A stretch of 64,000 bases of DNA. Origin: Antedon mediterranea. Lineage: Eukaryota > Animalia > Echinodermata. Both the position numbers and the translations under genes were made by a program. Below are positions 30,401 to 63,540 of this stretch, piece by piece (position 1 is the first letter of the stretch; each line of letters opens with the position of its first letter). The DNA lies in contig NC_092670.1 in the NCBI RefSeq assembly GCF_964355755.1, positions 35,700,388-35,764,387 on the forward strand, read 5' to 3'. Under the pieces are notes generated by a model. It searched no databases and had not been told where the DNA came from. It worked only from the letters and a program-made list of their open reading frames with translations.

Positions 30401-33400
30401 GATGGGTTTCCAGAGGTCCTAAATTCTCCAAAATAAGTGTGTTTTCCCTGATTTTTAATGCAAATCCCAGCCTCCCAAAATGAGTTATTTTCCCCTGAAA
30501 ATCTGGACTATTTAGCCTAGAGAGGTTTTTCATTGAAGACATCTTAAAACATGTTATTTTACAGTTAACACCCCTGGCACTGTTTATAATGATGCCCAGT
30601 ATTTAAATCAAGGTACTGGTAACTGTATAAAGAGAACAGTCAAATTGTGTGTTTAAAATGTTATCCATTATTCTGGTGAGATCCTGCTAGTCATTTAAAG
30701 AAAAAAAATATTTGTGAATGAAGTTTTCATGATAATTTAACTCCACTGCTTTTTCCTTTCAGCAAACCAAAAAATCGAATTGGTCATACATGTCCCTGCT
30801 ATGACTCGTACCCAACACCTAGTGTAGGTTATACACATACACCGAGACGACGATTGTCCTCCGCACCAGATAAACAGTCTATGTATTGCCAGACTTGGAA
30901 AGATGTCCTAGACAACCAACCAGATCTGACTGAAAGCATCAGGACAAATTTTGGAGAACCTGTTAAATCTGAATATTCAGAAGATTTATATGGCAGCTCT
31001 CTTGAGTGTGGAGGTGGAGATGCAGGACCTCAACCGTCTCCTTCTGGTGGCTACTGCTTTAACCAAAGATTTCATTCCTATTATAAAACCCATCCAACCA
31101 GTCCCAAAGACAGTGCAGCCAAAGGTTTTCCACGACCACACAACATGCCATCCAGTATATATGGATCTCACACCATTACACAACCACAACCGAATCCTCC
31201 TTTTGTGCCTGGACATAACCGTAGTAGATCTACTGGTGTTTTAAAAATTGACACTGTGAGTCAGCCTCTGCGATCGCCGCGGAATGTCTCTTTCGAGGAT
31301 CAAAGGCCAGATCATGAGCATGTGTTTGATCGTGGAGGAGTGTCTGGTGGTTCACCTGAGATGCAACTGGTGCCACCAATATGGTGCTTAGCATGTAACG
31401 ATACTGTTATTGCTGCAGGTTGCAGCAATGGTAGAGTAGAGGTAGGTGTTTTTTAAAGAATCATAATTTTATTGATTATATGTTTATGTCAAATCATTTT
31501 ATTTGCAAGGCATGAACGAACTGCTTGATACAAATGCAGAGCAAATTAGATAAATAAATGAAATGAATTTTATTTCGACTGTTTCTTGAAAAATTAATTA
31601 ATTATCTATATATAAATTTACGTAAGGGCAAAATTCGGTAAATCGCGCCTTACTTCTAGAATTTTCACTCGATGGTATGTAAAGTTGGTTCGTACTTTCG
31701 GTACTGATTTTAACCGCCTGATGTAACCCTGTTTACTAATTAAATTGAGTTAAATAATTAGTTATTGACGATTAAAACGAATTTAGGTTCAACGATTTGC
31801 CCCAAATAGGGGTGTTTTCCGATCGTGGTATACACTGTCTAATGGATGTCCATCTTGAAAAATACCCGCCAAAAAAATGCGAGGAGGCTTCGCATTTTTC
31901 TATCTCCTCCTACGATAATTGTTTTTAATAGCTGAAAACCGGTTGAACAGCTAGAGTAAACCATCATAATGTTGAAGACAGGCCGATTTTCTTTAAAAAA
32001 TACTATTTTGATAGATTTAATAAACGATTATACAAATGTATTGATTTGCGATGAATGGAACATCCCAATCTCTCAGTCTGCCAGAGTTTGGTTTAACACA
32101 AGTACTGTAGGTAAATTTATGAGCCCTTTGAGAATAAACTTGCAATACTTTGACAATACTGTAAATACCTATTAACTATTTTTCATTTGAATCGAACATT
32201 TCTTACTGTGAATGTTCGTACTGTTAGATGTAATATAAAAATATATACAAATAAACTTTATTACTGAGACTGTGGATAGGCTCTACTGTTAGATATACAA
32301 ATAAACTTTATACTGACAGTTCCTTCTCAACGTTTGTATTAATTAATAATTACCAAAAATATAAACGTCGTAGTGGTGTATCGTGACATGTACTTTAATA
32401 TTTCAATCGATTATGACAGTGACAGTTTTAACAAAGTATTAAATCGCAAATGTTTTAGGCCTACTGTATTTAGAGGTATATTATTTATAGGCCTATAAAA
32501 CATGAACAAAATATTTCGTTACTCAGTGGATAAAGAATATATTTAAAAATTGTTCCTCTTTGTACCTATCCGCTTTCCCATCCCTCAACCCTAATGTTAC
32601 ATAGCGAGGAGGCTTCGCATTTCCCTATCTCCTCCTACGCTAATTGTTTTTAATAGCTGAAAACCGGTTGAACAGCTAGAGTACACCATCATAATGTTGA
32701 AGACAGGCCGATTTTCTTTAAAAAATACTATTTTGATAGATTGCTAGAGTACACCATCATAATGTTGAAGACAGGCCGATTTTCTTTAAAAAATACTATT
32801 TTGATAGATTTAATATACGATTATACAAATGTATTGATTTGCGATGAATGGAACATCCCAATCTCTCAGTCTGCCAGAGTTTGGTTTAACACAAGTACTG
32901 TAGGTAAATTTATGAGCCCTTGGTTTAACACATACGGTAGGTAAATATATGGGCCCTTTGAGAATAAACTTGCAATAGGTTCGGAAAATGTTAAAAACCA
33001 ATTTCTATTATTTGAATCGGTAAACAGTTTCCATTTATTATACATTGATAATGAAACATGAAATATTCCTATTTATGTCCCTCGAGGTTCATTACAATTT
33101 ATATTTAGTAGTCCCACGGACTTCATCTTAGCCACTCCCCCGAGTGCTAAGGCCAAATTTATGATACCCTACTTTCTATGTAAGTTTAGTTACAGTTAGT
33201 TCTTGACGATAATACAACGAATTTAGGTTACACCCTTCGGCCGCGAAAACGTTTCTGTACAAATATGATACCGATTGGCTTTATTTCATTCAACAGCGAC
33301 CATAATCTCGCCAATTACAGGATAGATAAACTATTTTATTATTGATGTGCTTATAAATTAAGACTCATGTAAACAGCTTGATTACATCATTTTACAGACA

Positions 33401-36400
33401 AACGAAACTTTTTTAAACCTACTGTTTCAATAACTGAGTATAATACTGTATACGTTTTCATTGACGAGATTGTAATAGTAACTTCAGTAACTATTACAGT
33501 ACTTATTTATTATACGACACAAGACAATTGTATCTGACAGGTACGTACATTATTCTAAAAAATAAGTCTAGATAGATCCCTTAGGCGTCATAAATCACAG
33601 GCCAACAAATCAGTACTCATGACAGAAATTCGACCCAGTTTGGTTCACACAAATGTTTACAGGAATTTCAACACCACAACCGATGATTTGCCCTAAATAT
33701 TTAGGTAGACTACAGTTTAATTTTTCACTGAATAGGAGCTTGCATTTCCGATTTCCATTTCGCAGAATGTCTAGGTCTATTTATTTAGTTTGGTTCTTAT
33801 AATATATAAATACAATCAACTTTATTACTGCGGTTCCATCACCACCACCACGTGTCGCCCAATTCCCGTACATACATTTCCATTTCTCCCTAATTTCTTT
33901 AATCCACATAAATTAATTGTCCTTTATGGAATCCAGTATTGGTTTTGTTGTCTCTATTTCTGAATACCCCAATTAGGGGGACACTTCCGTTTTTGTTTAG
34001 TGTCCCAAAAAAGTCCCCGTCCGTGGATTCTACTGTATTCGAGAACCATCTGTGAGCACCCCTAGATGGTACGCGAGCGAAGCGAGCGTGCCATCTAGTA
34101 TATATAATTTTGTGTATGAAATTCAACTTTAAAGTTATTGCCAAATAGTTTTGTTTATGTTTCTTTATATTGTTTTCTTTTATTTAGATATGGGATGCTG
34201 GGAATGGTTCATTACTGTGTTATTTTGAGTCATCATCGTCTGGGGTCTCTGCTATGTGTATATATGGTAACATGTATGTATTTCTTTTTGTAGTTTGCTG
34301 GACAATTCCATTATTTTTTTACTGATTACCAGAGCTAGTATTTTTTTCTTTTTTCAAGTGTTTGCCTGAAAAATGTATCAAGTTTAGTTTTCTTATATGG
34401 AATAAAGTGTGTGATGTAAGATTTCAGAAAAAAAACCCAATTACTGTACTGTATATTGACAAATAATTACCACATATCTGTAGGCCACTCTCTAGCCAGT
34501 TCAAATGAGTTTTTACAAGAAATACTTACTAATTAATTTTCATGAATCAGGGTTTCCCTGGGTACCACCTCAAAGTCGGCCCAATTTCGTGTTCTATGAT
34601 TATACCAGAGGATCTATGGTAAGCAAAATCAATGTTTAAATTATTTAAGATGATAATTTTGCAAAGCATGTTTGGTAAATCTACCCCTATTGCTACCTTA
34701 GTGATATTAATGATTTTGTATTTATTTTTCATAGGCTTGTTGTAGCTAGGTTAGATGGTACGTTAGATTTCTTACACCTTGTAAATAGCAGTTCAACTTA
34801 TGTACAAGATTTCACAGATTCCTATGAGAATAAAGGTAAGATCTCATTAAGATCTGTTATCCATGTCACACTATCAAAAACAGTGTGATGTGCCCAAATG
34901 TGGTAGTTATATGCTTAAATATAGTAGTGATATGCTTAAATATAGTAGTGATAAGACATCCTCATGTCCATAAATGGGCACATCACATTTTTTTGGTCAC
35001 ATAAAGTTTGATAGTGTAGACAGAATTAAAAAATATATTACTGTAGACTGTTAATTATTAACAAAATTGTTAAACCGATATTTCATAATCATATTGATTA
35101 ATAATAGGCTACACTAGCTGTCGAGTTCTACCATGTAAACCCCATTTATTATGGTGAGAATAACACTATACTATTTTGTTTGTTTACAGGGTCTTTTAAC
35201 CGACATTTTGTAGAGAATGAGTATTTTTCCGGGTCAATGTGGGAATGTCACCGTGTTTGTCAAATGCGAGCTCATCAACTACTGATAAACGAAGTGGTCA
35301 TCTTGACTGGTCAGGTGGTCACAGCTAGTGATGACCACACACTTAAGGTACAACAAGTTTAGTTATATTTTCAGAAGATCTATAAATGTATACCACCTGA
35401 ATAACTGTACTCGGCCAAATATGGTACATGTATCAGATCTATATAGCACCAGTATATTAATAAAGACTAAAATCAAAACTAGAAGAAACCTGAACTATTT
35501 CTACTTTCAACTACTCTATTTATTTTTGTTGATTGCTTAATAATTGTTGACTGTATGTATCTTTGTTATTAAAAAAAAATATACTAAACTATTATTTTTA
35601 ATAGGTTTTTCGCCTTGAAGATTGTTTGTATTTATCAACATTACGGGGACATACAGGTGCAGTAACCGTGGTAACAGTAGATAAGGTAACCTTAAACATA
35701 TACTGTATATATTGTATAATTAAACAGCTTCCTACAATTTGTGACGTTTTGTAAAAATAATACATATGAATACTTTAAAAACATTAAACTAGGTCATTTC
35801 TTGTCTTAAATGTACGTTTTATGGTAAATTATGATAAAAAGTGAGAAATAAGGCACTGCCTAAGTAGCTCGCGGCGAGTGACCTCTCGTGGACGGTTTTT
35901 AGGCCTAGCCTAGCTAAGTTTAGTTTTGTAGGCCTAGCTGGTAAACATCAGTAACGTACGAACATCGTACGCTAGCTATATACCTAGCCTGACGTTGTAT
36001 AGTTGCTGCATTAATTGTCTTTCTATTTTTTCCCGACTCCGTTGAAACAAATTGGGGAAAACCCGGTATTTTCGCTGAAAAGTTAGGAGTCTTCCATTTG
36101 TTTTGGCCTCACGATCGATCGAAAAGTGGGTTAATTACAGAAGAAAAACAAAAATATCAATCTGCGCACAATGCATTTATGGGATTTATAGCGGGCCGCT
36201 ATAATTATTAGAATCAACTTATTTTTCACATTTTTAACCATTTAAAGACGAAAAAAGTTATCGCAATAGGACCATATAGTATTATTTTTACATTAAATAT
36301 AGTTTGTGATCTTAAATTAGATCTAAAAAATGTAGGGAAAGTGTCTTTAAACTATTCTTTAGTAAATTTTATACTACCTGTTGTTACAGTAGAGTTGAGT

Positions 36401-39400
36401 TGTGGCTTTATGTAGAGCATCTTATGTGTATGTTTGTCTTGTGAACAGGATTGTGTACTTGTCAACTGGTTTAACTAAAAGTTAATCTGTATTTATTTAA
36501 TATCCATTGAAACCTCACCTTTAAGATGGATAGTGAATAATAAGTAATTCAACAATTACAGGATAGATAAACTATAATTTATCATGCTTATAAGGTCTCT
36601 TTTGAGGCTTGGGGAGTGGAGTAAAAAGAGTTGGGAGTTACAAACCATGGCACTCAACCATGGAACTAGGTCAGGATTATCATGCTTATAAGGTCTCTTT
36701 TGAGGCTTGGGGAGTGGAGTAAAAAGAGTTGGGAGTTACAAACCATGGCACTCAACCATGGCACTAGGTCAGGATTATCATGCTTATAAGGTCTCTTTTG
36801 AGGCTAGAGGAGTGGAGTAGAAAGAGTTGTGAGTTACAAACCATGGCACTCAACCATGGCACTAGGTCAGGATTATCATGCTTATAAGGTCTCTTTTGAG
36901 GCTTGGGGAGTGGAGTAAAAAGAGTTGGGAGTTACAAACCATGGCACTCAACCATGGCACTAGGTCAGGATTATCATGCTTATAAGGTCTCTTTTGAGGC
37001 TAGAGGAGTGGAGTAGAAAGAGTTGTGAGTTACAAACCATGGCACTCAACCATGGCACTAGGTCAGGATTATCATGCTTATAAGGTCTCTTTTGAGGCTT
37101 GGGGAGTGGAGTAAAAAGAGTTGGGAGTTTCAAACCATGGCACTCAACCATGGAACTAGGTCAGGATTATCATGCTTATAAGGTCTCTTTTGAGGCTTGG
37201 AGAGTGGAGTAAAAAGAGTTGGGAGTTATAAACCATGGCACTCAACCATGGCACTAGGTCAGGATTATCATGCTTATAAGGTCTCTTTTGAGGCTAGAGG
37301 AGTGGAGTAGAAAGAGTTGTGAGTTACAAACCATGGCACTCAACCATGGCACTAGGTCAGGATTATCATGCTTATAAGGTCTCTTTTGAGGCTTGGGGAG
37401 TGGAGTAAAAAGAGTTGGGAGTTACAAACCATGGCACTCAACCATGGCACTAGGTCAGGATTATCATGCTTATAAGGTCTCTTTTGAGGCTAGAGGAGTG
37501 GAGTAGAAAGAGTTGTGAGTTACAAACCATGGCACTCAACCATGGCACTAGGTCAGGATTATCATGCTTATAAGGTCTCTTTTGAGGCTTGGAGAGTGGA
37601 GTAAAAAGAGTTGGGAGTTACAAACCATGGCACTAGGTCAAGATTATCATGCTTATAAGGTCTCTTTTGAGGCTTGGGGAGTGGAGTAAAAAGAGTTGGG
37701 AGTTACAAACCATGGCACTCAACCATGGAACTAGGTCAGGATTATCATGCTTATAAGGTCTCTTTTGAGGCTTGGGGAGTGGAGTAAAAAGAGTTGGGAG
37801 TTACAAACCATGGCACTCAACCATGGAACTAGGTCAGGATTATCATGCTTATAAGGTCTCTTTTGAGGCTTGGAGAGTGGAGTAAAAAGAGTTGGGAGTT
37901 ACAAACCATGGCACTCAACCATGGAACTAGGTCAGGATTATCATGCTTATAAGGTCTCTTTTGAGGCTTGGAGAGTGGAGTAAAAAGAGTTGGGAGTTAC
38001 AAACCATGGCACTCAACCATGGAACTAGGTCAGGATTATCATGCTTATAAGGTCTCTTTTGAGGCTTGGGGAGTGGAGTAAAAAGAGTTGTGAGTTACAA
38101 ACCATGGCACTAGGTCAGGATTATCATGCTTATAAGGTCTCTTTTGAGGCTTGGGGAGTGGAGTAAAAAGAGTTGGGAGTTACAAACCATGGCACTCAAC
38201 CATGAAACTAGGTCAGGATTATCATGCTTATAAGGTCTCTTTTGAGGCTTGGGGAGTGGAGTAGAAAGAGTTGTGAATTACAAACCATGGCACTAGGTCA
38301 AGATTATCATGCTTATAAGGTCTCTTTTGAGGCTTGGGGAGTGGAGTAAAAAGAGTTGTGAATTACAAACCATGGCACTAGGTCAGGATTATCATGCTTA
38401 TAAGGTCTCTTTTGAGGCTTGGGGAGTGGAGTAAAAAGAGTTGTGAGTTACAAACCATGGCACTAGGTCAGGATTATCATGCTTATAAGGTCTCTTTTGA
38501 GGCTTGGGGAGTGGAGTAAAAAGAGTTGGGAGTTACAAACCATTGCACTCAACCATGAAACTAGGTCAGGATTATCATGCTTATAAGGTCTCTTTTGAGG
38601 CTTGGGGAGTGGAGTAGAAAGAGTTGTGAATTACAAACCATGGCACTAGGTCAAGATTATCATGCTTATAAGGTCTCTTTTGAGGCTTGGGGAGTGGAGT
38701 AAAAAGAGTTGTGAATTACAAACCATGGCACTAGGTCAGGATTATCATGCTTATAAGGTCTCTTTTGAGGCTTGGGGAGTGGAGTAAAAAGAGTTGTGAA
38801 TTACAAACCATGGCACTAGGTCAGGATTATCATGCTTATAAGGTCTCTTTTGAGGCTTGGGGAGTGGAGTAAAAAGTGTTGTGAGTTACAAACCATGGCA
38901 CTAGGTCAGGATTATCATGCTTATAAGGTCTCTTTTGAGGCTTGGGGAGTGGAGTAGAAAGAGTTGTGAGTTACAAACCATGGCACTCAACCATGGAACT
39001 AGGTCAGGATTATCATGCTTATAAGGTCTCTTTTGAGGCTTGGGGAGTGGAGTAGAAAGAGTTGTGAATTACAAACCATGGCACTAGGTCAAGATTATCA
39101 TGCTTATAAGGTCTCTTTTGAGGCTTGGGGAGTGGAGTAGAAAGAGTTGTGAGTTACAAACCATGGCACTCAACCATGGAACTAGGTCAGGATTATCATG
39201 CTTATAAGGTCTCTTTTGAGGCTTGGGGAGTGGAGTAGAAAGAGTTGTGAATTACAAACCATGGCACTAGGTCAAGATTATCATGCTTATAAGGTCTCTT
39301 TTGAGGCTTGGGGAGTGGAGTAGAAAGAGTTGTGAATTACAAACCATGGCACTCAACCATGGAACTAGGTCAGGATTGAACCCTGGACTTTAGATTTGGA

Positions 39401-41418
39401 AGTTACAGCTTCACTACTTGCACACTAAAGAATCCAAATACAGTTGATTGTAGTGTTACATATTTAAGGGAACTACAGTAGTATATTTGACACTACAGTG
39501 ACCCCTATTTAGGGGACACCCCTTTTAAGGAGACACTTTTTCATTGTTCCTGTAATGGGAAAGTGTCCCAAGTTCTGCTGTAAAACAATCTGGATGTTGA
39601 GTATCTGATATACATACCATCTTTCATCCTGTGCGCTACGATTTTAAAACAAAAACTACATTATTCTTTTATCTACAGAGATCTGGAACCAACTTCCTCG
39701 CTCCATCCGTTAAACTCCATCCCCTTTTCAATTCAAATTCTCTCCTGCAAACTCGCCTATTTCAATAGCTTTTCTTTTCATGTTGCGCTGTGAGACTCCG
39801 GTAACGAGCGCTTTTATATATGTTGGATATTATTATCTTCTACATATTTCTATAATTTTTTTTAGTCGTGTTCACACACCATAGCGAGTGGTTCAGCCGA
39901 TGGCACTGTACGTGTTTGGGACTTATTGAAATGTGACCCCATTTATGTTCTGAATGGTCACATCAGCTCTGTGCTCTCTGTGTGTTGTTCGGATGACTAT
40001 GTTGTCAGTATAGGCTCCGATGACAGACTGTGTGTTTGGAAGAAGACAACTCGAGGACGATTGATACATATTATACAACTCGTAAGATATTTCTTGTTTT
40101 ACTGTGGTAAATCACAATACTACTTTATTAATAGTTTTTGTCTGAGTTTAGTTTTTTGTGGTAAAATATTGCTTCTTTGTGATTATTTACTGTCTTCAGT
40201 CAAAGACCGGCCAGTTATGATCAGTGGCTGTGTGTGTTACTAGTACACCGGGGTAACCTCCTACTCATCTTGAAAGATGTACTAGGTTCTTGAAAGATGT
40301 ACTAGGTTCTTTAAAGTACACATGAGCTAGTATGTGTACAATGGACCTACGGTTTATAGTCCTTATCCAAGACGATGTTGCAGCTACGTAATTACGGTTC
40401 CACTGTCTTAAACAAGCTCAATTTTCATTTCGCACCACATATCTATGCAGCTGTTGAGTGAAAAAAAGAAAAGTCATTCTGTGCACATTTAGAAACATAT
40501 GAGCATGCACAGAATGTCTCTTAGATTCAATCGCTTCATACTCACATGGTGCGTTTTGTAAATGGAATGTCACTGTTTAACAAAGGCTACTTTATTTTTA
40601 CTTTATTTATTTTAAATATTTTTTCTTTTTAATAGGACTCTGGTTGTGGCAGCAGTGTTATCACATTAGCAGATAAAATAATGGTTACAGGGGGCAAGGT
40701 AAATTCTTAATTTTAAATTTTGAAAATTATTTTTTGAAAATGATTTCACAATATTATGAATAATATGGAAAATACAATTGTATTTGTGTTATTTGCACAA
40801 TAACATCATATATGTATTGTACAACTGTTTATCAAAGTCCTACCATTATAGTATAGGAAAGAAGACAAAAAAAAGACAAAAACAATTACATACAAAATCC
40901 CAATTTGATTATTACACAGTAGACACCTTTTATAAGGGTACATCTTTTAGCTTTGTCTACACTATCAAACTAGTTTGACAAAAAAATGTCTGATGTGCCC
41001 AAATATGGTAGTGATATTCCCAAATATGGTAGTGATATGACATCATCATGTCCATATATGGGCACATTTTTGGCCACATACAGTTTGATAGTGCAGACCC
41101 AACAAAGTTTTCTAAAGGAGGAGGTTCCACTGGAGTTAATACAAAATTTAAAAAAGTTTAAATAAAATAAATTCCAAACGTAAAATGTAATAATACTACT
41201 AATTAAACTAGTTAAACTTATTCTTTACAACTTTATTTTAGGGGTGTCTTGTGGTTTGGGATATATTGGCTGGTGAGCCGCTACGCAAGGTAGATATGGG
41301 TAGCACATACCTAACCGTCAATCAAATTACAGCCATTGATCACAGTTCAATTGTGTGTGATTGCGGAGAAGAGTTGAGGGTAATTGCATTTCCACCACAG
41401 CTACGCAAGGATGAATGA
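21463..41418 (+). CDS. SCAP: SREBP cleavage-activating protein (23 coding exons, ~1326 aa)
   Basis: Phase-consistent GT-AG exons: 21463-21581, 22182-22329, 22671-22828, 23352-23560, 24052-24166, 24442-24538, 25128-25206, 25491-25617, 25853-25965, 26618-26712, 27504-27602, 28048-28290, 29129-29460, 29635-30004, 30227-30342, 30763-31441, 34188-34273, 34735-34835, 35190-35347, 35605-35685, 39866-40081, 40636-40698, 41242-41418 (3981 nt). N-terminus [15 protein letters not shown]; sterol-sensing domain [41 protein letters not shown]; [16 protein letters not shown]; WD40 repeats. Confidence 0.97.
22455..22620 (-). mobile_element. tRNA-derived SINE remnant
   Basis: Reverse strand GTGGTTATGATACTTGGCTACCAATCCAAGGGTCCTGCGTTCAAGTCC (B-box-like); body similar to ~36410-36460 and ~61560-61640. 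Confidence 0.5.
22891..22988. mobile_element. MITE family B (TIR AAGCTTGGTTCCCACTAG)
   Basis: 25-bp perfect TIR AAGCTTGGTTCCCACTAGGATGCAA / TTGCATCCTAGTGGGAACCAAGCTT; another copy at 26390-26542, remnants at ~7333, ~15543-16250, ~43410. Confidence 0.85.
24600..25100 (+). mobile_element. Decayed L2-clade LINE 3' fragment
   Basis: Translates to [15 protein letters not shown] (L2-type H.SP.L..LHWLPV motif) and GFFAQAP; (TAT)-rich tail; similar 3' end at ~39670-39840. Confidence 0.6.
26170..26350. mobile_element. MITE with ~28-bp TIR
   Basis: CCGATTCCCAGTGCTGTATCTCCACATACT / AGTATGTGGAGATACAGCACTGGGAATCGG; related rearranged sequence at ~43738-43925. Confidence 0.8.
26390..26542. mobile_element. 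MITE family B copy
   Basis: GCTTGGTTCCCACTAGATGCAA ... TTGCATCCCAGTGGGAACCAAGC. Confidence 0.8.
27750..27906. mobile_element. MITE family A copy
   Basis: TCTGTCTACACTATCAAAC ... TTTGATAGTATAGACAGAGCT. Confidence 0.8.
28354..28528. mobile_element. MITE family C copy
   Basis: AGAGCCTTTCACACCTG ... CAGGTGTGAAAAGCCCT. Confidence 0.65.
28845..29025 (+). mobile_element. tRNA-derived SINE (monomeric relative of the 98-bp satellite)
   Basis: A-box-like TAGCTTGATGG, B-box GGTTCAATCC, then TGACCTAGTGCCACGGTT...TAAGCACGATAA...TATCCATCCTGTAATTG. Confidence 0.7.
31605..34098 (+). mobile_element. Non-autonomous Helitron (2.5 kb) in SCAP intron 16
   Basis: A|TCTATATATAAATTTACG 5' end; 3' hairpin CTAGATGGTACGC-loop-GCGTGCCATCTAG ending CTAG|T; AT target, no TSD; same termini as 48900-50350. 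Confidence 0.85.
35724..36346 (-). mobile_element. Kolobok-like MITE K1, more diverged copy
   Basis: Reverse complement of 12062-12687 with a decayed left end; TTAA at 36347-36350. Confidence 0.85.
36579..39377. repeat. ~2.8-kb tandem array of 98/85-bp units derived from a SINE body
   Basis: Unit TTATCATGCTTATAAGGTCTCTTTTGAGGCTTGGGGAGTGGAGTAAAAAGAGTTGGGAGTTACAAACCATGGCACT[CAACCATGGAACT]AGGTCAGGA, roughly 30 copies, in SCAP intron 20. Confidence 0.95.
40949..41098. mobile_element. MITE family A copy
   Basis: AGCTTTGTCTACACTATCAAAC ... GTTTGATAGTGCAGAC. Confidence 0.8.
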
Positions 41419-44400
41419 AACTAGTTACTGGTGGACTATGAAGATAAGAACAATCGCAACGAACCCTGAGAGCCTACAGTAGGGACTTCTATATTTTATT
41501 GAATGAAGTGAATGAAGTCAACGTCCACATCGTCGTAGGTCGTAGTCGACTGTTACTCGTCGACAGATACCTGAACGTTTAGATTAAGTGGACATTTACG
41601 TTGACGTACTAGTGAACGTATGACGTAATGACCTTGTGATCATCTGACCTTGTAATCTCTAGTAGGGCTTGCCCACGTGGAGCTATTCCACCTCGCTGGA
41701 CTGGTGGAAGAGCACAGGCTTAGGCCAGGCTAAGTGTGTATCTTTGACCCAGACCATAAATCCATATCAATATTATTAAAAGGCTTTATTTATAATAACC
41801 AATTAAAATTAATAATCCACAGTTTGCGAATATATTTTTACTGAAATTTACTTTACTACATTCTCAGAAGATCATCGTGAGATCAGTCTCCATCATGATT
41901 TTGGTAAACTTTTGTAGTGTCACAACGTCATGCGTCCACTCGTACTCATGTCACAGAGAGAATGCCCCAAAAAAAAAAACTGAACAAGTGCCCAAATTTG
42001 CCAGTCGACGTTCCAGTCGCCTAGTGCATGCGCATATCATTAAAATTACATATTAGGGTAGCGAAGAGAATCTAAAAGTTCCTATTATGCATGAAGATGC
42101 CTTGAAGGTACTCCATGTCTTTGGCGCCTGAATAGAAAGTAGAAAAAAAGTGCATTATAATATACAAATACGCCTAAACAGATATGCAACTGTTTATTAG
42201 ACAACTATGCATTTTAAAATACTGGTGGATAATGAATATACAAATAATGAGTGGAATGGACAGAATATTTTTATAAGTTTAAAAATGGACTGGTCTATTA
42301 AACGATGTGGATGGAACAAAAAAAACCATTATTTATCGTCTAATACATTTTTAAGTAGGTTGCCAAGTTGCCCTATTTTTTATGAACCCTTTTTTTTGCG
42401 CAACAATACTTTTAAAACAAGATACAAGCTGTAAAAACTTAAAAAGCACAACACTTATTAAATAAATAAACAAATTATTTTGTTATTTGGTTTGTTTGAT
42501 CATGTTTACTGACTAAGATTTTTTTAATGATGTGGTACATGATAAGTTGATTCAGTTTTAGCTTCAAATTCAAATTAGCTTTTGGTTTAAAATTGTAAAT
42601 CTTTCCCTATGCGTGTAGTTACCCTTTCACACCAAAACTCTGCAGTGATTGATCTCCAGAGACACACACCAACCTAGCAACCTCAGTGTTTTGAACTTAG
42701 TTTTTAAACCAAAACTGCGGAGTGTCTTCGACAGAGTTTTTCTTTTCATGTGAAAAGGGTATAGTAAATGTTTAATTTTGTTGTTTTGACGTTATTCTGA
42801 TGTGGAGTTCGCTAATCGCATTGCTTGTGTCCTAGGCAAGACACGTGCGTTTGCCTCTATCCATCCAGGTGTACAAATAAGTTCACCTGTTGCGCTGACT
42901 AGCTGCTTCTTTATGAAAGTGCGTATCCATACGCGGTGTCCACATACATCCAAAATGATCAGGGTATAGTATAATTATTACCAGATCTTCCCTTCATTTT
43001 TTCATACATCTGTGTAATCAAAGTTCCGGTAGTAATTTCGGAATGATGACAACTGCCATTTTATATTTGTTTGAAAAAAAAAAATATGTTGAATTGTGTG
43101 AGTAGTGATACGGTGATAGAGAGTATTTTCATTTTAAGAATTGTTTTTAGCATATCATTTTTTATCGTCAAATATGTTATACAGTACATACATTGTTAGT
43201 TTTGCAGCTGGGCATTAATTTTTGTTTGAAATTCAATTCTAATCAAAACTTAATTGTGTCAAATTAAATGTAAGAAATGTTTATTCAATCATAAAATCTG
43301 AATTTGTTATCCATGATAATATTGGCCAAATATTGAGTTGGGATATTGGAATATTTGTAACAAATGCAATTAAATAAATGTAACGAAAAAAAAACAACAT
43401 TTTGTGGTAACGCAAGTGCGTTGACCAATCACAGGCGACAGTCTTGATAAGTTTTGGTTAAGTTGCTTATGGTGGGCTTGCGTTGCGTCCAAGTATCTAG
43501 CTTTAGACATAAGCTATACAATGGTTATATGTAACTGATGAAATTCGTATAAATTAATCTGATTATTGTATGTAAATATATTTTATAAATAAAATGTATG
43601 GTCACGTTAAATCAATTGGAATGCGTCTCTCTATGTAAAAAGATTACTGACAATAGAATGACATTAGTTTGCGTTTGAGCGCAGCTAGGCCTATATGCAT
43701 AAGCAAACCAAGTATAATAGTGTATCAACAGTCTGTACCCGATTCTCAGTGCTGCATCGGTGCTGTATCTCCATATACTACGATATTTGCTCAGTATCAG
43801 TCATATTTGGTAATACAGCATCTCATGTTTATCACAGTGGTGCCTGTATCATGTAAGGAGATGATAGTTTATACTTGTGAAACACATGTGATGTTGTATT
43901 ACCAAATATTTCTATGATACTGAAATCTACTTAGAACCAGGTGCTATATTTTTGTTCGTACATAAGTTAGGGACCCCTCCTGAAACGTCACAAAAAAATA
44001 CATGAATATTTATTAGTCATATCCGTAAGGTGTGACGTAAGAATTGAGCCAACTACTATTCGCGAACCGGTTGCAGTCTGAGTTTGCTGGGCTAAAATGT
44101 TGATCATGTTTTGTAAATATTCTGTAATTAGGCCTATTATATATTTAAACACACTTTTACTATCATACACACGTAACCAGTGACGTATCGCTCAGCACTA
44201 ATGCTTAAAGATGCCGCCCGATTATGTAACGTATGAAACTTATTAAGCATACACTTACAATTCGCTTTTGATCAATTTAACCACAGCATTTCAGCTACTA
44301 TGATTTTGTCTCCTCTTTCTTCTTGTACTGTACCTCTGATGTTGGTATACATAAATATGCTACATCAAGTTGTATTAATAATCGTTGTTTAATTTATCTG

Positions 44401-44651
44401 GCAAGGTAATTTGCATGAATCAAATTAATTACCATAACATATCACAACAAACGTCACGCCTGGAACTTTTAATTTACTTACACAAACATCAATTACAGAT
44501 AAAATTAGATACTCCCAAACTTTTAAAGTAAACGTCGTTTCAATGATGTATAATGATAAAGTAAGTATTTGAAAGTCTACAAGGGATTGTCGACATGTGT
44601 GTGTTTCTAAATAGTAATTTAGTTATGAAATTAGTGTATACAAAATCAAAA

Positions 44652-44836
44652 GATCACGTGGTCTTATGGGAATACTAAAACAAACACTGATAATTATCAA
44701 TGAAGTATTAATTGCCTTTTTGTTGAGTATAAAAACTGTAGGCCTAGAGATTTTCCAAATCATTTATACTTTATCTTAACGCACCGACAACTGCAGCTTG
44801 TCTCCTCTTCTGTTGCACCGTTTGACAAAACACAAG
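44652..44836 (+). promoter_or_regulatory. Putative TATA promoter and non-coding first exon of the cysteine-rich peptide gene
   Basis: E-box ATCACGTG (44653-44660), TATAAAAA at 44728, Inr-like TCATTT at 44760, donor AAG|GTAGGC at 44836; acceptor TTTTTAG at 45288 just before AAACATG. Confidence 0.55.
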
Positions 44837-45292
44837 GTAGGCCAGCTTAATATTCTAATAATGTGTATAGGCATTTAGATTTCTGCTTTCAAGCTTCCAC
44901 CATGTCCAACTATATTTGAGATTTTTCACATTTCTAGTTTATTCAATTTCTAATCTAAGTTTGGTAACTTTTCTTTAATGATCTACAAGATATATTGTCC
45001 CCCTGTAAATTTGTTGTTGTTGTTCCATACTAGTAGGCATATTCACTTTAACCAAAAATTGGATCCAAAAAAAATTTACTTGAAAAAACAATAATTTAAG
45101 TCTTTTATAGGCCTAAGTGAAAACATTATTTTTTTTTTCTGCGGAAGTGATTAACTTTATTTAAACTACAAAATAACCTATTCAAAATCTGATTGTATTA
45201 CTCTAGGCTATTTGTTCATGTTTTTTTTTCTTTAATCACTGTCACTGCTTAAATTGTCAACTGCAATAATAGTTCCATTTGTTTTTAGAAAC

Positions 45293-46804
45293 ATGAAAGT
45301 TACAATTGTAGTTCTGCTTGTTGCCGCTGTTGCCATTTGTTTTGCGCATGCTCAGCCATACAGATCTGATGGTAAGTTACTGCTATTTATTACTAAAATG
45401 TGATTGTTGTAGTGTTTTGTTTTTATATTTTAAATTTGCAATTCGCCTACTACATAAATTAACTTACTTACTTAAGCCTTGTTACAGCTAGCAGTGCATA
45501 GGCCATCAACTACACGTCTCCATCTCACACGGTTCTGGGCAATTCCTTCCACCTCTGTCCAGTTATAGCCAGCATCCTTCACCTACTTATCCAGTTCTCT
45601 CCTCTATGTGTTCCTTGGGCGTCCTCTATTTCGTTTTCCTTGGGGATTCCATGTTAGGGCATGCCTAGTTTTGTTGTGTTGTGTAACATAACATAAATTA
45701 AGAAACAGCAACTTTGTTTACTTGTATATTACTTTATTTTATGCTGTTGCTCTGTGTATAATTTTGTACATCGCTTTTTATGTAAAAATATTCAAGTTAA
45801 CCCGATCGAAATGCACTTGTTGCTTAAATACATTTTAAAATAATCTTTTATCAAAATATTATTTTAACTTATTTAACAACATTTGATTGTTTTGCAGATC
45901 GCCAAAAAAGAGGAATGTTGAATGGAGAAGCAATGACAATGACGGATGAAAGTAAGTATACATCATCTTAACATTTTTGTAATACTAATAGTGCTATAAA
46001 TGTATTACCATAGAAAAAAAACACCCCAAATAATTGGAAAAATAAATTGGCAAATCCAAAACTATCTCTTGATATTGATTGAAATCATGAAATAGTTAAA
46101 GATGTATTGTCCCTTGAAACATAAAAAAATAAGGTCAAAATATTCTAAATTTAAAGTGGCCATATCAAAGAAATATTAAAGTTATTCACTTTAAGTCGAA
46201 AATTTGAGCCAAAAACAACAAGTTTACGTAATTAACAGGTAAATTAGTTTGATTACATTTCGTCTGGAAAATCGTTACGAGCGAAAGTAAACAAAGATTT
46301 CAAACCATGAGTACGCATTATGCATGCTAAATTAGGATTGTTTACAACTCGTCATGGTTAAGAAGTAAAGGTATTTTCACACAGATCATGAGGAAGTTTT
46401 ATGATTATGCATACAGAGTAGCCAAACAAGCGCGTTTCATTATGGGATATGTTTTGATTGAAAACTTTGACTGGAAGTCAAAGTTATTTTTTTAACAAAA
46501 AAACGTCTGTATTTCAGTTAAATTTTTTTTTTCCCGAAAAGTGTTTGGTGATAGTTAATAACTATTATGATACTTCAAAATGACCCACCTTTTTTCGAAA
46601 TCTATTATTTTTTATTTTTTTGGAATTAGTCAAAGGGACAATACATCTTTAAATAATGAATTGTCTAATTAATTTGTCGTTATAGTAACAGAGAACAAGC
46701 GAGGCTGCAGAAGACCCTGTCAAACAACAAAAGATTGTGGCTACTACACTTACTGCATGAATTCATGCTGCAGTCGCTTCAAATTCAGTGGAATGTACAT
46801 GTAA
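45293..46804 (+). CDS. Secreted cysteine-rich prepropeptide (83 aa; toxin/defensin-like precursor), 3 coding exons
   Basis: Exons 45293-45371, 45898-45951, 46686-46804 with GTAAGT donors, both introns phase 1: MKVTIVVLLVAAVAICFAHA-QPYRSDDRQKR-GMLNGEAMTMTDEITENKR-GCRRPCQTTKDCGYYTYCMNSCCSRFKFSGMYM*. AATAAA at 47555 with GT/T-rich downstream sequence. Confidence 0.85.
45463..45690 (-). mobile_element. 5'-truncated RTE-clade LINE with target-site duplication
   Basis: Reverse strand encodes ALTWNPQGKRNRGRPRNT*RRE...IAQNRVRWRRVVDGLC, (TAAG)n tail; 11-bp TSD ACATAAATTAA at 45452-45462 and 45691-45701. Confidence 0.9.
46100..46648. mobile_element. Kolobok-like MITE (family K2)
   Basis: TTAA|AGATGTATTGTCCCTT ... 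AAGGGACAATACATCT|TTAA. Confidence 0.85.
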
Positions 46805-48123
46805 ACTAGTAATGTACATTATTAACTTCGTCAGAGCAGAGCATGCATGCTTCAATATGAACACTATGCTACATTTGCCATGTGATCTGGTGGTGTAAAA
46901 CATGCATGCAGCAGCGAGTACGACGCGCGCGTACCGGATGTAAGTGCGGCAGAGACAAGCTAAAATCAAGTTAATTTGTGATCTAATCAAACAGGACTTA
47001 CTCAATTTCTTCATTTTTTTAGTTTAGCGATTCTACACATTATTTTTAATTGTAGTCTAAATCGAACTATTATTACAAGAATTGATGTTCGGTAAAATAT
47101 ACATTGGCGGATAACATGAGCTTATTGTTGGAATTTATTCAAATTCAGATGGTGAGTCCAAAGCACATGCACAGAGCACATCGTCGTACCACAGCGAGAC
47201 AGGCACATGTTTTCTGGTGGTGCGACATTTAAAGCTAGGCTCGGCTGGTATGGTAGATAGGCCTCAGTTAAAATTATTGTTTTTTCATTAAATAACCTAT
47301 GTTATTAGGCTTATATTGTGACTTCATTCAATTTGAACTATAGATCAATAGATATTGTTTATTTAAAAACTTCAGTCATGTCGGTTATAAATAGGCAATT
47401 CTAATGATAAAAATAACTCGTGTGACATTCACATGACACGCAATGATTATACTAGTTTTATATATCTCCCTTTAATATGGTGTCTAATAGGTTACAGGCC
47501 CCATGTTCATGAGTACTGTCCGTGTCTGAAATGTTAATTTCACTTTCAGTCTCCAATAAAATACAAATCGATTGCTCTGACAATTTAAGAGTGTCATGTT
47601 TTATATATCCTGCTTTTTATTTTGTTTATAATTTTTAAATAATTTAACAGTTTCGTATTGGTCACGAGTGTTAAATTACGACGTTTCGGTTGTTTCCAAT
47701 TTATAACCTTCTGCTAAAGAAATCTTACTCTAAATGAATATTGTCAAGCTTTTTAAATGTTCATGTCGATAATATCAGCCTTCACATGTATTGAATACCG
47801 TACTTTAGCTGTGATTGATAAGGCATGCATGTAATAATTATTATTACTCCCATGTTTAAATCAATAAACAGATTATAGATTGTGCGAAAAAGTAGGCTTA
47901 TGTACATACGAAAGGGGTTGCGAATGTGCTAAAAATAACCCATTATCTACAAAATTGAATTTTCTGTAGGCCTATAATTAACGTAGTTTTTTTTTCTCTC
48001 TTTCGTTAAATTTATACAAATTTCAAAAAGCGCGCAATGCGCTTCTACGTGCCAAATTTTCTTCCAAATCTTATAACGTTTTGCTCAATTCATTGTCTTT
48101 CGATCACCTATAATTCGTCACTT

Positions 48124-50690
48124 TGTATACTGTAACAATAACAAATCTACACTTAAAGAAATCAATATTGGTGTTCCACAAGGAAGTGTCCTGGGACCCA
48201 TCTTGTTTCTCATTTTCATAAATGATATTTCGCAGTCTATAGTAAATGGAACTTGCAGCGTTTTTGCTGATGATGTTGTTGTTTACACCTCAGGTGATAC
48301 TGCTAAGATAGTAAATGATTCATTACAAATAATTATTGATAACATTGGTAAATGGTATGATGACAACCACCTCTCTATAAATACTGAAAAAACAAAGGTT
48401 ATGTTACTAAGAAACAATCATACAGCTGACAGTAATGATTTAAATATACAAATTGGAACCAGTAAATTAGAACAAGTTGATAGTATAAGGTATCTGGGAG
48501 TCGTAATCGATGAAATGTTAACTTGGAAACAAAATACTCAATGTATTAGTAAAAATATTGGATATAAAATAACAATGCTAGGTAAAATGGCTAGTAGTTT
48601 AAGTAAACCGTTACTTGAAACTCTATATATAAGTACAATTCAGCCTTGTAGTGATTATGCTATAACAGTCTGGGGAAATACGACAGAGTTAAACAAAAAT
48701 ATTTTAAAGCGACATCAAAAAAGAGCTGCTCGAATTGTAACTAACAACTTCGATTATATTAATGTAAGGGGTGACAACATCATCCAGAACCTATCGTGGC
48801 AAACTCTTGAAGAGAAACGAGATTTCTCCCTAGCATGTCTAATGTATAAATGTGTTTACGGCCTTGCACCAATTAGATTAGTAAATGAAATTGAATTGAC
48901 TAGATGGTACGCTCGCTTCGCTCGCGTACCATCTAGGTCGTGCCCACAGATGGTTCTCGAATACATAATAATTTCAGCGTTAAAAAACTGGCGATTTCAA
49001 ATGTACGTACCGCAGGACAAATACATGTCGTTTACAGGAACGAATAAATAGACATTGTGATTTATGTACTCAACTAAAAATAGCACCCTGGGAATTACTT
49101 CCGAAAGAGAAACTTGTCAAAAAATGAGACCAATTGTTTAAGTCAAATTTAAACAAACTTAATAATTTGTGTTTTGTATGTAACATTAGGGTTGAGGGAT
49201 GGGGAAGAGGATGGGTGCAAAGAGGAACAATTTTTAAATATATTCTTTATCCATTTAGTAACGAAATATTAATTGTTTTCATGTTTTACAAATAATATAC
49301 CACTAAACACAGTAAAACATTGCGATGTAATACTTTGTTGAAACGATCACCGTCCTAGTCGATTGAAACTGTACAGTATATGTAACGATACATCAATACG
49401 ACGTGTATATGTTTATATAATGTAAAACAATTTGTGAAAACCACCTCTATTCGGGGCAAATCATAAATTCGATTTAATCGTCAATAAATATTAAATTATC
49501 TAACTCAACTTAATTAGTAGGCCTAATGGTTTTCAATTGTTTCTTAGAGCCAATCATACTTTAAGTTGGTTCCTACCCTACCCACCAAAGTTGTTCTGCG
49601 TTTAGGGCATGTGATGCACCGTAGGCCTATCCTCTACTGGCTTTACAACGCTACTCGTGCCAGTGAGGGAAGGGTGATGATGTGGGTGGTTTAACTGCAA
49701 TAATAAATATTTGTACATAATATACGGCGACTGAAAACGCTAGTTCATTATCCGTTAAAAAAAAATCTATATCCAACCTCTGCAGTACAGATTGAAAAAA
49801 AAAATGGATCAAATTTCTGTTATGAGTAAACAGTACTTGCCTTTACGACGCCTGAGGGAATAGACACTTGAATTGTGGAACAGAGATTGGAATATTCCAT
49901 TCATCGCAAGTCAATACATTTGTATAAACGTATATTAAATTTATCAAAATAGTATTTTTTAAAGAAAATCGGCCTGTCTTCAACATTATGATGCTGTATT
50001 CGAGCTGTTCAACTGGTTTTCAGCCATTAAAAACAATTATCGTAGGAGGAGATAGGAAAATGCGAAGCATCCTCGTATTATTGTCTGCGGGTATTTTTCA
50101 AGATGGACATCCATTAGACAGTGTATACCACGATCGAAAAACACCCCTATTTGGGGCAAATCGTTGAACCTAAATTTGTTTTAATTGTCAATAACTAATT
50201 ATCGAACTCAATTTAATTAGTAAACAGGGTTACATCAGGTGGTTTAAATCAGTACCGAGATTCTAACCAACTTTATATACCATCGAGTAAACATTCTAGA
50301 AATAACGCGCGATTTACCGAATTTTGTCCTTACGTAAATTTATATATAGATTCGCGATATTCACACCCACTTAACGCGTGGAGTAGAAAATTTGAATGTA
50401 ACAATACCTAAATACACCCTTAGTAAAATGAATTCGTCCTTTAAAGTTGCAGGCGCAAAAATATGGAACAATTTACCAATTAATATTAAATCGGCACCAA
50501 CAATTACGTCCTTTAAGGCTAGATACAAATCTCATTTCTTTTCATAAAAAACTGACATGTATTATATTTAATTAAGTTTCTCTTTTGTATATTTTGATTA
50601 AGACAGGACCACAATGTAAAACAGATACACTGTTATCTGATTGTTTTATCCTGTATAAATATATTATTTATTATTATTATTATTATTAAA
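48124..50690 (+). mobile_element. 5'-truncated CR1/L2-group LINE (RT C-terminal half), interrupted by a Helitron
   Basis: GVPQGSVLGP.LF, FADD, YLGV, QKRAAR; after removing 48900-50350 the frame continues IRDIHTHLTRG...SFKVAGAKIWNNLP..IK...FK to TAA at 50545-50547; (TTA)n tail ~50665-50688. Confidence 0.92.
48900..50350 (-). mobile_element. Non-autonomous Helitron (1.45 kb), nested in LINE
   Basis: Reverse orientation: TC 5' end at 50350, hairpin and CTAG at 48900-48936, inserted between A and T with no TSD. Confidence 0.88.
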
Positions 50691-52523: not shown

Positions 52524-53164
52524 GTAAGATTTCATTTTGATAATATTACATATTTTAGAATTAGATAACTTTAGAACTGATAGGCTACTCAGATCTCACT
52601 CGTACAGTACCGTATCAGTTCTATTCAATACTTAAAACTCGATTATACACACGAGAAAGTTTAACTAATAAATACATTACTATGATATTGTTTACGCCTC
52701 TGTAGAGAGGTTTTGATAAAAAAGACGCTTCATGAATTCTTTCCTTTACGGATGTACAAAGCATAAACAAACACAATGCCAATTTCTTATCTTTCTATTA
52801 AATTCAAAAACAATAAGTTGCTTTCAATGGTATAAACCAATTAAACTTAACTTTCACCTGTGTTCTTGATTGAATATAGGATTACTTTTACTTTCGTCTG
52901 TCTTAGATTTTTCCATGAATTTTGACACGAAGATTTGACGAGAATAGTATACACGTCTTGCTAAATACTTAACATGTATGCCTCCCTATAATTCATTTCT
53001 ATAAATGTAATTATGATAATTCACTAGGACAAATTACTTTGCAAGGCCTAGTAGCTTTTGTTTGTTTGTTATTATTTATTTATACATGAATGAAATAGGT
53101 AAAAAAAGTAAAGTTGGCACTTATCATTAATATATATATATATATATATTTTTTTCAGGCGACA

Positions 53165-54169
53165 ATGGAGGAAACATCAAATGAAACTGTCTTGCCGCCA
53201 TGGATATGTACTTTTCCTGACTTCACTCGGACTAAACTTGCGACAAAAGCCTCATACGTTTATAGCTATCTATCCATTATTGCTATTTTATCGTTTCTGA
53301 TTATCATCACGAATTCTATTATACTAATAGCTATGATATTAAACAAGAAACTACATAGATCAAGATACGTTCTGATATTGAATCTGTGCATATCTGATTT
53401 GTTGGTTGGATTGATTTTCCCGGTTGTCGTCTGGGGTGGAGCCGGCGTTGGAGATATTCTCGGGAGTATTGTCTCGTTTGTTTCTATGCTCACAATCCTG
53501 TCTATAGCGATTGAACGATTTTTAAAGATAGTGTTGTGTCCGTATAGTAAGAAACTGGCAACGTCTCGGCAACTGATAGCGGTCTGTGGTGGCATCTGGC
53601 TAATGTCTGCAGTACTGTTCTTCTCTGTTATAGACAAACCGGAGGCTTATGGCTACCTTTACCATTTTATCATTCCAGTCCTTTTGTTTATCATTCTGGT
53701 AGTCATCATCGTACTCTATCTTTTGATATTCATGAATGTTAACAAGCAAGAGGTATCGCAGTCACAACGATCAACAATAAAACGCGGCAAGTTTATAAAA
53801 TCAAAAAGAGTTCTCGAAGGTTTTGTTATGATTGTAGCTCTTTACATCTGCTGCTATCTACCATGGGGCGTGGAATCTTTCAGAATCGGAATCCTGATGG
53901 CAAGAAATGAGCAAGATATCTGCTGGAGAGGAACCATTCCGTTATATTTCACTATCTGCATCGGTATTCTGAACGCGGTATTGAATCCATTCATTTACTG
54001 GAGACGTCTACCTGATTTTGGTGACAGCGTCAAAGCGCTGTTTAAATGCTGTTGTGGAAAATACGATTCTAAAGATTTCGAAAACAACGATTCTTCAACT
54101 ACTCTTGCAAGACAAAACTCTAGACTTTCAAATTACACCAAAGAAAATACAATTAAACATAACAACTGA
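53165..54169 (+). CDS. Class A (rhodopsin-like) GPCR, orphan, 334 aa, single coding exon
   Basis: Seven hydrophobic segments; TM1 N, TM2 NLCISD, TM3 IAIERF, TM4 W, TM6 CYLP, TM7 NPFIY, helix 8 F and CCC; N-glycosylation sequon NET. True start MEETSNET follows the splice acceptor. Confidence 0.93.
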   Translation: MEETSNETVLPPWICTFPDFTRTKLATKASYVYSYLSIIAILSFLIIITNSIILIAMILNKKLHRSRYVLILNLCISDLLVGLIFPVVVWGGAGVGDILGSIVSFVSMLTILSIAIERFLKIVLCPYSKKLATSRQLIAVCGGIWLMSAVLFFSVIDKPEAYGYLYHFIIPVLLFIILVVIIVLYLLIFMNVNKQEVSQSQRSTIKRGKFIKSKRVLEGFVMIVALYICCYLPWGVESFRIGILMARNEQDICWRGTIPLYFTICIGILNAVLNPFIYWRRLPDFGDSVKALFKCCCGKYDSKDFENNDSSTTLARQNSRLSNYTKENTIKHNN

Positions 54170-57604: not shown

Positions 57605-58387
57605 AAGCCCTGTCTGCACTATCAAACTAGTTTGACAAAAAAAAAGTGTAATGTGCCCAAATATGGCAGTGACATGCCTTTCATCATTTGCGGTACTATA
57701 TACGTACCATTTATTTGTATCAACAACAAAATAATACAGTATTTCTTTCACAAGAATATTTCTATATACTTATTTGATACAAAACGGGTATGCAATGAGC
57801 CGAAGCTCTTAAACGCATTATCCTATAATACAGATATCTAATTAGCAAATAAAACAATAAAAGTACAAATAGAAATAAAAGTAAAAGTAACAAAAGTGAA
57901 CTCTACATGAGTGAGTATTTATTTATTAATAGTTGTTGTATTTCCTTTTTAAATTTTCCGATTTTAGTTTCACACTTTATGTTTTCAGGTAAACGGTTCC
58001 AAATATTTGCCCCTCTATAGGCAATACTTCTTTGTCCTATATTTGTTCTTTTTAGAGGAATACGGAAATCACTCTTCTTCCGCGTACCATACTCATGTAC
58101 AGATTCCATTTTTGTAAAAAAAGAGTTAAATGAAACTGGTAAATTGCCCATACGGAATTGAAACATAAATACAGCAGTGTACTTCTCATACAAGTCAAAA
58201 ATATTCAATAGGTTTTTGTTATAGAATAAATTTGCTGATGGATGCTGATAATGCACTTTACATATAATTCTGATCGCTCGTTTTTGAAGTATATGTATTC
58301 TCTGTAGCTTCGTTGGTAGTGGTATGACATAATCGTGTCCATATATGGGCACATTGTCACATAAAGTTTCATAGTGCAGACAGAGCT
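57605..58387. mobile_element. MITE family A copy split by a LINE insertion
   Basis: Left half 57605-~57679, right half ~58314-58387. Confidence 0.75.
57680..58313 (-). mobile_element. CR1/L2-group LINE 3' fragment
   Basis: LQKRAIRII...H.YGTR...SIAYRGANIWNRLPENIK...FKKEI C-terminal motifs; stop at 57903, 3' UTR to ~57680. Confidence 0.85.
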
Positions 58388-58446
58388 TTATAGCATAACA
58401 CAATTATTTGCCTTGCATGCTATTATTATGTTTACAAATGTGTTTT

Positions 58447-62758: not shown

Positions 62759-63229
62759 CTAAAGAAGAAGATTTAGAGAGATAATTACAAGTACACAGTG
62801 TTGTATTATCAACAACCATACAGTTGGCAATCTTAATCCCAACCTGCCTCAACTACCTGTTAATAGTGTATGATTTAAGTGTTGACCATTATCTAATACT
62901 GTAAATGGACAGTTATTAATTCTTATTCTATAGAAAAGGAACAGTAGACTAATCTCCCCCTAATCTACTAGATTATCAACAGGATCTTAAACTTGATCCT
63001 AATCTCTTGTGCTGTATTAAGATGTTCCATTTTGAAATGAGTAATGATCTTTCCTTCCCTAGTTTACCAAAATGTACTAACAATGTCGGTTGTGGCAATT
63101 TTATTATTTCTTTTTTCATTCTTGCAAGTTGTCTCATATTTTATTTACACATTGTAATAATTCAGAATTATAGATTCAAATTTTCTTTTAATATAGTACA
63201 CCTTCTGTATACAACACTATATCATGTTG

Positions 63230-63540
63230 AAGGAATACATACCTGTATACCACTCTGAGGAATATATACCTGTATATCACTCTGAGGAATATATACCTGT
63301 ATATCACTCTGAGGAATATATACCTGTATATCACTCTGAGGAATATATACCTGTATATCACTCTGAGGAATATATACCTGTATATCACTCTGAGGAATAT
63401 ATACCTGCATATCACTCTGAGGAATATATACCTGTATATCTCTCTGAGGAATATATACCTGTATATCACTCTGAGGAATATATTTACTATATATTCACCT
63501 GTATATCACTCTGAGGAATATATACCTGTATATTTCTCTG
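63230..63540. repeat. 27-bp minisatellite (GAGGAATATATACCTGTATATCACTCT)n
   Basis: About 11 units; explains the 9-aa periodic ORFs on both strands. Confidence 0.95.

Follow-up and report, generated by a model that had tools for sequence, protein, structure and literature searches.

What does a short spliced gene without recognisable relatives encode in the genome of the feather star Antedon mediterranea? A first-pass annotation of a 64-kb stretch of genomic DNA (the window) had proposed a hidden gene whose three small coding exons would give a secreted 83-residue precursor with a six-cysteine peptide at its end, and had taken its layout to point to toxins or defensins. The peptide gene is real, as attested by its exon structure, its splicing (one run), its reading frame, its charges and its cysteine spacing. 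As to its function we favour, at a probability of about 0.45, the reading in which the 83-residue precursor yields a cationic peptide of 33 residues, predicted to hold three disulfides, with a role in host defence.

All coordinates proposed for the gene hold. On the forward strand, three coding exons bounded by GT donors and AG acceptors, with both coding introns in phase 1, contribute 79 nt (45293-45371), 54 nt (45898-45951) and 119 nt (46686-46804) to a frame of 83 amino acids that begins with the ATG at 45293 and stays open up to the TAA. A putative TATA box (TATAAAA, 44728-44734), its function inferred from the sequence, stands about 100 nt 5' of the first donor. Non-coding exon 1 (44755-44836), whose start is estimated from the TATA box, ends at the donor 44836/44837 and contains no ATG, and the transcript leader as a whole lacks an upstream ATG. 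Exon 2 (45289-45371) carries 4 nt of 5' UTR, the ATG, the predicted signal peptide (residues 1-20) and the start of the pro-region; exon 3 (45898-45951) carries an RQKR site and the bulk of an acidic spacer; exon 4 (46686-47572) carries the end of the spacer, a KR pair, the predicted mature peptide (46703-46801), the stop codon (46802-46804) and a 3' UTR of 768 nt. The 3' limit of exon 4 is the end of a transcript contig, which need not be the end of the RNA; the first AATAAA polyadenylation signal after the stop (47555-47560) lies 12 nt before it. TATA box, non-coding first exon and AATAAA had all been predicted and were all found again, the exon's end being joined to the rest by the contig described below. 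An in-frame alternative acceptor is present at 46692, 6 nt past 46686, and would cut 2 residues from the spacer; the acceptor used in the spliced contig is 46686, and use of 46692 was not seen in that one contig. High-copy repeats occur in all three introns (about 45060-45200, 45460-45680 and 46100-46650), where the summed depth is far greater than over the flanks in every run.

The peptide gene starts about 3.3 kb past the stop, and on the same strand, of the gene for SCAP (SREBP cleavage-activating protein; 21463-41415, +), which was delineated by 22 tblastn segments against the NCBI SCAP-like protein. Part of this SCAP gene, used as query, matches the A. mediterranea SCAP-like protein of NCBI at 100% identity with 93% of the query covered, which identifies the host as a feather star, and matches that of Anneissia at 62%. 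A long single frame for a rhodopsin-family GPCR (53099-54169, +; PF00001, E 2.3e-23) lies 6 kb 3' of the peptide gene, an adjacency that we count as no evidence for a link between the two. Elsewhere in the window, exons of a PIP5K-family lipid kinase gene are found at 4754-6530 (-), where the frame at 6195-6530 matches PF01504 (E 8.6e-18). A reverse-transcriptase fragment (48077-49051, +; PF00078, E 1.7e-20) is high-copy in the DNA-like runs, and a frame at 57903-58403 (-) resembles, on visual inspection, the terminal part of such an element. At 15464-16236 and 63188-63593 the minus strand has long open frames of repetitive sequence that stem from tandem repeats.

Five sequencing runs of one organism, from two studies and none of them recorded as RNA, covered the stretch; four of the five were aligned on 44000-48500 and two of the five on 45210-46090. 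One of them, X1, is RNA by a computational guess that its three spliced junctions back. A 1048-nt contig of X1 passes from exon 2 to exon 3 and skips a 526-nt GT..AG intron (45371/45898), with 55 nt on the short side of the joint. Its 30-nt unaligned end past 45951 matches exon 4 exactly from the first base of that exon, and its 14-nt unaligned start ahead of 45287 comes from the 3' end of the non-coding exon, giving the junction 44836/45289 with a short side of 16 nt, which is less than the 31-nt threshold. An X1 contig of equal length and depth aligned to 46686-47572 from record position 154. All three junctions that had been predicted, including 45951/46686, are hence found in the X1 contig, the first of them on 16 nt. 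The deepest DNA-like run, X4, had no 45371/45898 joint, and its contigs span the exon-intron borders. The splicing evidence for the gene comes from one run of one study. At least two differences between individuals (40 of 71 listed on 44000-48500) are coding: the variant I15L in the signal peptide and a silent change at residue 70 in the mature part.

Could the spliced RNA be non-coding or untranslated, with an incidental frame? No protein record was retrieved for it in the database searches, as would be expected in that case, but a predicted signal peptide, a pair of convertase sites and six cysteines in an even pattern fall in one frame spread over three exons, behind a leader free of ATGs. 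None of 100 locally shuffled copies of the window produced a basic pair followed by the C-C-C-C-CC order, and the cysteine pattern by itself appeared 4 times. We consider this explanation very improbable. The gene's own protein was not retrieved in the searches, and its product is probably missing from the annotation.

The layout of the precursor is that of a putative secreted prepropeptide. Hydropathy in 9-residue windows is at least 2.0 at all starts from 1 to 12 and below zero from residue 16; a lysine occupies position 2, and alanines stand at -3 and -1 of the predicted signal cleavage site. Hydropathy and the small-residue rule together fit a signal peptide that would be cut after residue 20. 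Recomputation placed RQKR at residues 28-31, KR at residues 49-50 and the C-terminal 33-mer at residues 51-83, as the first-pass annotation had described them; the furin consensus is R-X-K/R-R, and RQKR fits it. The spacer had also been called acidic. This stands for residues 32-48 (17 residues, four D/E, net -4) and does not extend to the whole pro-region (residues 21-50), which is net 0 and acidic in its core only. The six cysteines of the mature part are residues 52, 56, 62, 68, 72 and 73 (CX3CX5CX5CX3CC), so spaced that loops of 3/5/5/3 residues lead to a terminal CC followed by a 10-residue tail without an amidation glycine. The mature peptide has a net charge of +4, a pI of 8.9, 18% aromatic residues, no tryptophan and a hydrophobic free C-terminus; its calculated mass with three predicted disulfides is about 3886.5 Da on average and about 3883.5 Da monoisotopic.

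The annotation had recognised no relative of this peptide, and the searches bear this out. Queries against large databases consisted of the last exon alone (33-40 residues), that against NCBIfam also of exon 2. With the last exon as query, word-index searches at 71-2000 and at 22-70 residues retrieved no protein relatives, and phmmer gave 0 matches at E 0.001 among 1.84 billion representative sequences. The sole Pfam match was PAN_4 (E 0.17 and 12.4 bits, where the cut-off is 27); the defensin, anemone-toxin and eclosion hormone profiles of Pfam did not match the last exon, and NCBIfam returned 0 families for the 2 queries. The best ESM Atlas scores, 0.87 and 0.89, fall below the lead level of 0.9 and belong to unnamed clusters of 30-32 residues. 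Among PDB sequences the best match was the jasmintide jS3 (E 0.09 and 0.073, below significance; jS1/jS3 comparison), followed by the weak matches of a PAN/apple domain from micronemal protein 4 (E 0.1) and of potato carboxypeptidase inhibitor (E 0.35-0.87 in one search, 0.55-0.74 in another). A second copy of any exon was not found in the 64-kb window by tblastn and blastn. The first-pass annotation had spoken of a peptide family; one copy in the window and no homologue in the searches do not sustain that word. An orthologue was not found in Anneissia either, though the database includes a protein of this second feather star. The missing orthologue is weak evidence because the peptide gene's own product was likewise not retrieved and small genes escape annotation, and its absence in Anneissia may be explained likewise. 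A search of the main texts of the openly searchable literature for three six-letter motifs from the peptide gave 0 matches.

AlphaFold2 run on the single 33-residue sequence gave a mean pLDDT of 79.8 (five models, 54-80) and a pTM of 0.40. The model consists of a short helical turn (9-11), a hairpin (16-19 / 22-25), one bridge residue and a low-confidence end. Of the 37 Foldseek matches at E <= 10 none reached 0.001; on top was the N-terminal region of Dkk4 (E 0.46, TMq 0.69), followed mostly by knottin-type inhibitors and venom peptides. VIA-align scored 12 of 48161 chains at Z >= 2, with EETI-II on top (Z 2.8, rmsd 2.3, 27 residues aligned). Defensins and jasmintides do not occur among the weak fold matches listed by the two programs, which does not exclude those folds. 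The model of the mature peptide looks weakly knottin-like, and scores at these levels show no more than a small disulfide-held hairpin of a common kind. The disulfides are probably paired I-V, II-IV and III-VI, by analogy with jasmintides and beta-defensins rather than from the model, since jS3 agrees with our peptide in cysteine order and in the length of two loops and has this connectivity by NMR.

These matches bear on the idea of a secreted protease inhibitor of knottin kind, for instance a metallocarboxypeptidase inhibitor that would dock its free C-terminal tail in the active site. The N-terminal half of the peptide is the part that resembles potato carboxypeptidase inhibitor, the top VIA-align match EETI-II is a squash trypsin inhibitor, the Ascaris carboxypeptidase inhibitor is among the Foldseek matches (E 6.7) and the C-terminus is free and hydrophobic. 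All of these matches are at chance level, however, and the first loop of the peptide has 3 residues and ends in Arg-Pro, whereas the reactive loop of squash inhibitors is longer. The tails of small carboxypeptidase inhibitors normally have 3-5 residues (PMC6780499) against 10 here, although trimming in vivo is conceivable. An inhibitor is quite unlikely. Hardly better is the chance of a secreted effector with some other extracellular job, such as a pheromone, a cue for settlement, or a factor that modulates adhesion or mutable collagenous tissue. Crinoids do have mutable collagenous tissue, and a predicted secreted, stable and apparently lineage-restricted peptide would suit such a role, but nothing in the analysis points that way.

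Host defence is the reading we favour because a cationic aromatic peptide is combined with a charge-matched spacer, the cysteine order is one of defence and venom peptides, amidation is lacking and no orthologue is detectable. Several observations argue against it. The gene is single-copy in 64 kb, whereas defence peptides are often arranged in arrays; the coding differences between individuals are conservative, one substitution and one silent change; the pro-region as a whole has no net charge; and no fold or sequence match reaches significance (Z 2.8 at best, Foldseek E 0.46, phmmer E 0.07). On the positive side, the weak fold matches are mostly knottin-type inhibitors and venom peptides, and strongylocins are an example of antimicrobial peptides with three disulfides that echinoderms produce in prepro form (PMC4805251). 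The lack of an orthologue also differs from the behaviour of PCNP2, a crinoid neuropeptide precursor that is almost identical in Antedon and Florometra (PMC9793003). Moreover the peptide is absent from the 20 predicted precursors of the crinoid neuropeptide catalogue in its accessible text (PMC9793003): no six-cysteine non-amidated 33-mer is described among them outside the figures, and ten short motifs of the peptide gave 0 matches in a text search of 7 supplements that did yield the control peptides.

A lineage-specific neuropeptide or hormone, stored in regulated secretory granules, processed by prohormone convertases and acting on a receptor in the same animal, possibly via the free tail, comes close behind and is nearly as likely, because echinoderm neuropeptide precursors share the layout and because the gene seems to be present once and to vary little between individuals. 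Directly after the signal peptide lies a 7-residue piece that starts with Gln and could be a second, pyroglutamate-ended product. An acidic spacer between two convertase sites is just as characteristic of neuropeptide precursors in echinoderms (PMC4772807), and the precursor is laid out as in Arnp11, Arnp15a/b, Ajnp11 and Ajnp15 (PMC4772807, PMC6586643). The step from layout to toxins and defensins taken in the first-pass annotation finds no support in that form, as the starfish precursors Arnp11 and Arnp15 have the same layout and no defensin is among the fold matches listed. A neuropeptide gene would also be in keeping with one copy in the 64-kb window, a conserved mature part and four CRE-like hexamers (43985, 44033, 44181 and 44451) within 900 nt 5' of the TATA box. 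This cluster was noticed post hoc as one of six motifs tested, however, and has no full palindrome among its four members, two of which lie in or beside a high-copy repeat; as many hexamers occur in 3.5% of sliding windows, and the whole window holds 33. Further points against a neuropeptide are the lack of an amidation glycine, a length and cysteine spacing unlike those of the eclosion-hormone-type, orexin-type, CCRFamide and Ajnp14LP peptides in the accessible descriptions, and its absence from the crinoid catalogue, which comes from a selective screen that retained 16 de novo candidates from A. mediterranea (PMC9793003).

If the peptide does serve host defence, the precursor would enter the secretory pathway and signal peptidase would cut after residue 20. 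A furin-type convertase would then cut after RQKR and a prohormone convertase after KR, setting free three products: the 7-residue piece, the spacer and the 33-mer. Before cleavage the spacer of net -4 might mask the +4 peptide, like the anionic propieces of sea-urchin antimicrobial peptides. In the folded core a short helical turn would pack against a beta-hairpin, the two probably held by the bridges I-V, II-IV and III-VI, and this rigid core would present arginines and tyrosines together with a flexible basic and aromatic 10-residue tail. Its targets may be microbial surfaces, or a receptor or channel of a small attacker.

A literature search found no crinoid antimicrobial peptides in the titles or abstract openings of the 10 papers it returned, and should the peptide found a crinoid defence-peptide family, such searches would know of no earlier gene-encoded antimicrobial or deterrent peptide from a feather star. 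All other living echinoderms together form the sister group of crinoids. With its 33 residues the peptide is open to direct synthesis and assay, so that both possible results are within cheap reach: a defence peptide of crinoids built on a very compact scaffold of three disulfides, or a neuropeptide that the crinoid catalogue has missed. The gene is also an example of a spliced gene seemingly absent from the protein databases. It overturns nothing; many small cysteine-rich secreted peptides without known relatives exist in marine invertebrates, and this is a new sequence of a common kind.

When compared with known systems the peptide lacks, for every family considered, one or more of the features that define it, and we therefore place it in none. 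Among neuropeptides, the echinoderm eclosion-hormone-type precursors (np11, np15) share with our precursor the order of signal peptide, acidic spacer, dibasic site and six-cysteine peptide, described at the C-terminus of the starfish precursors Arnp11 and Arnp15 (PMC4772807). Arnp11, Arnp15a/b, Ajnp11 and Ajnp15 were later renamed eclosion-hormone-like (PMC4772807, PMC6586643, PMC5627052). Identity with np11 or np15 was rejected: their mature peptides have 45-57 residues and the cysteine positions of insect eclosion hormone, against 33 residues here (PMC4772807, PMC6586643, PMC5627052). A separate eclosion hormone precursor of A. mediterranea has already been described. Orexin-type peptides were rejected as well, since the ambulacrarian members have an amidation glycine and first two cysteines that are adjacent or one apart. 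So was CCRFamide: the RF of our peptide is internal and no Gly-basic site follows it, whereas the crab CCRFamide precursor has four cysteines in its peptide, which ends in RF-G-KR (PMC6158917; CCRFamide also PMC13760995). Ajnp14LP was set aside on length and cysteine spacing, which do not fit the 33-mer.

The C-C-C-C-CC order itself recurs in conotoxin as25a (framework XXV; PMC4278219) and in the centipede peptides SLPTX7 and SLPTX20 (PMC4379518). These are venom-gland products of unrelated animals, compared with our peptide by cysteine order alone. We know of no venom apparatus in crinoids. Knottins (EETI-II, spider and cone-snail peptides, the N-terminal region of Dkk4) weakly resemble the predicted turn and hairpin, but their cysteine orders are C-C-CC-C-C or C-C-C-C-C-C (PMC6042386), whereas the adjacent pair of our peptide is V-VI, terminal rather than central. 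With the adjacent pair at the end, the first bridge would fall elsewhere than in a knot. Strongylocins have the cysteine order C-C-C-CC-C. These sea-urchin peptides, from the same phylum, have a signal and short pro-sequence and six cysteines in three disulfides as in our precursor, but are Trp-bearing and of 5.6-5.8 kDa (PMC4805251), against 3.9 kDa and no Trp here. Short anionic propeptides neutralise both strongylocins and centrocins of sea urchins (PMC10608444), and the EeCentrocin precursors have 20 + 30 residues before the mature chain (PMC4805251), exactly as ours is predicted to have, which is probably a coincidence.

Of the known cysteine frameworks, the one nearest to ours is that of plant jasmintides. 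Beta-defensins and the anemone toxins of beta-defensin fold have the terminal-CC order, the cationic charge and the prepro layout in common with our peptide. Human beta-defensin 1 has the C-C-C-C-CC order with I-V, II-IV, III-VI pairing, and the same pairing is found in the anemone toxins (PMC6042386, PMC11509556). The loops of such peptides had been expected to be longer than those of our peptide, and loops 1 and 4 of human beta-defensin 1 are indeed much longer (PMC6042386). Set beside the three-stranded antiparallel sheet of the beta-defensin fold, the model of our peptide shows its hairpin and the one bridge residue. Jasmintides (jS3 of Jasminum sambac, PDB 5wxe) share with our peptide both the C-C-C-C-CC order and the layout of signal, pro-domain and mature chain, and two of their four loops (2/5/7/3 against 3/5/5/3) are equal in length, namely those of 5 and 3 residues. 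The NMR connectivity of jS3 is I-V, II-IV, III-VI, and jS3 deters insect feeding (PMC6042386). Jasmintides are plant peptides, mostly processed at QXN, hydrophobic and with hardly any tail, whereas ours is preceded by KR, carries a net charge of +4 and has a tail of 10 residues; judged on sequence, the likeness is probably one of convergence. It is possible, if doubtful, that the peptide is the founder of a crinoid defence-peptide family in which a knottin-like core with the disulfide pairing of beta-defensins and jasmintides arose independently of plants.
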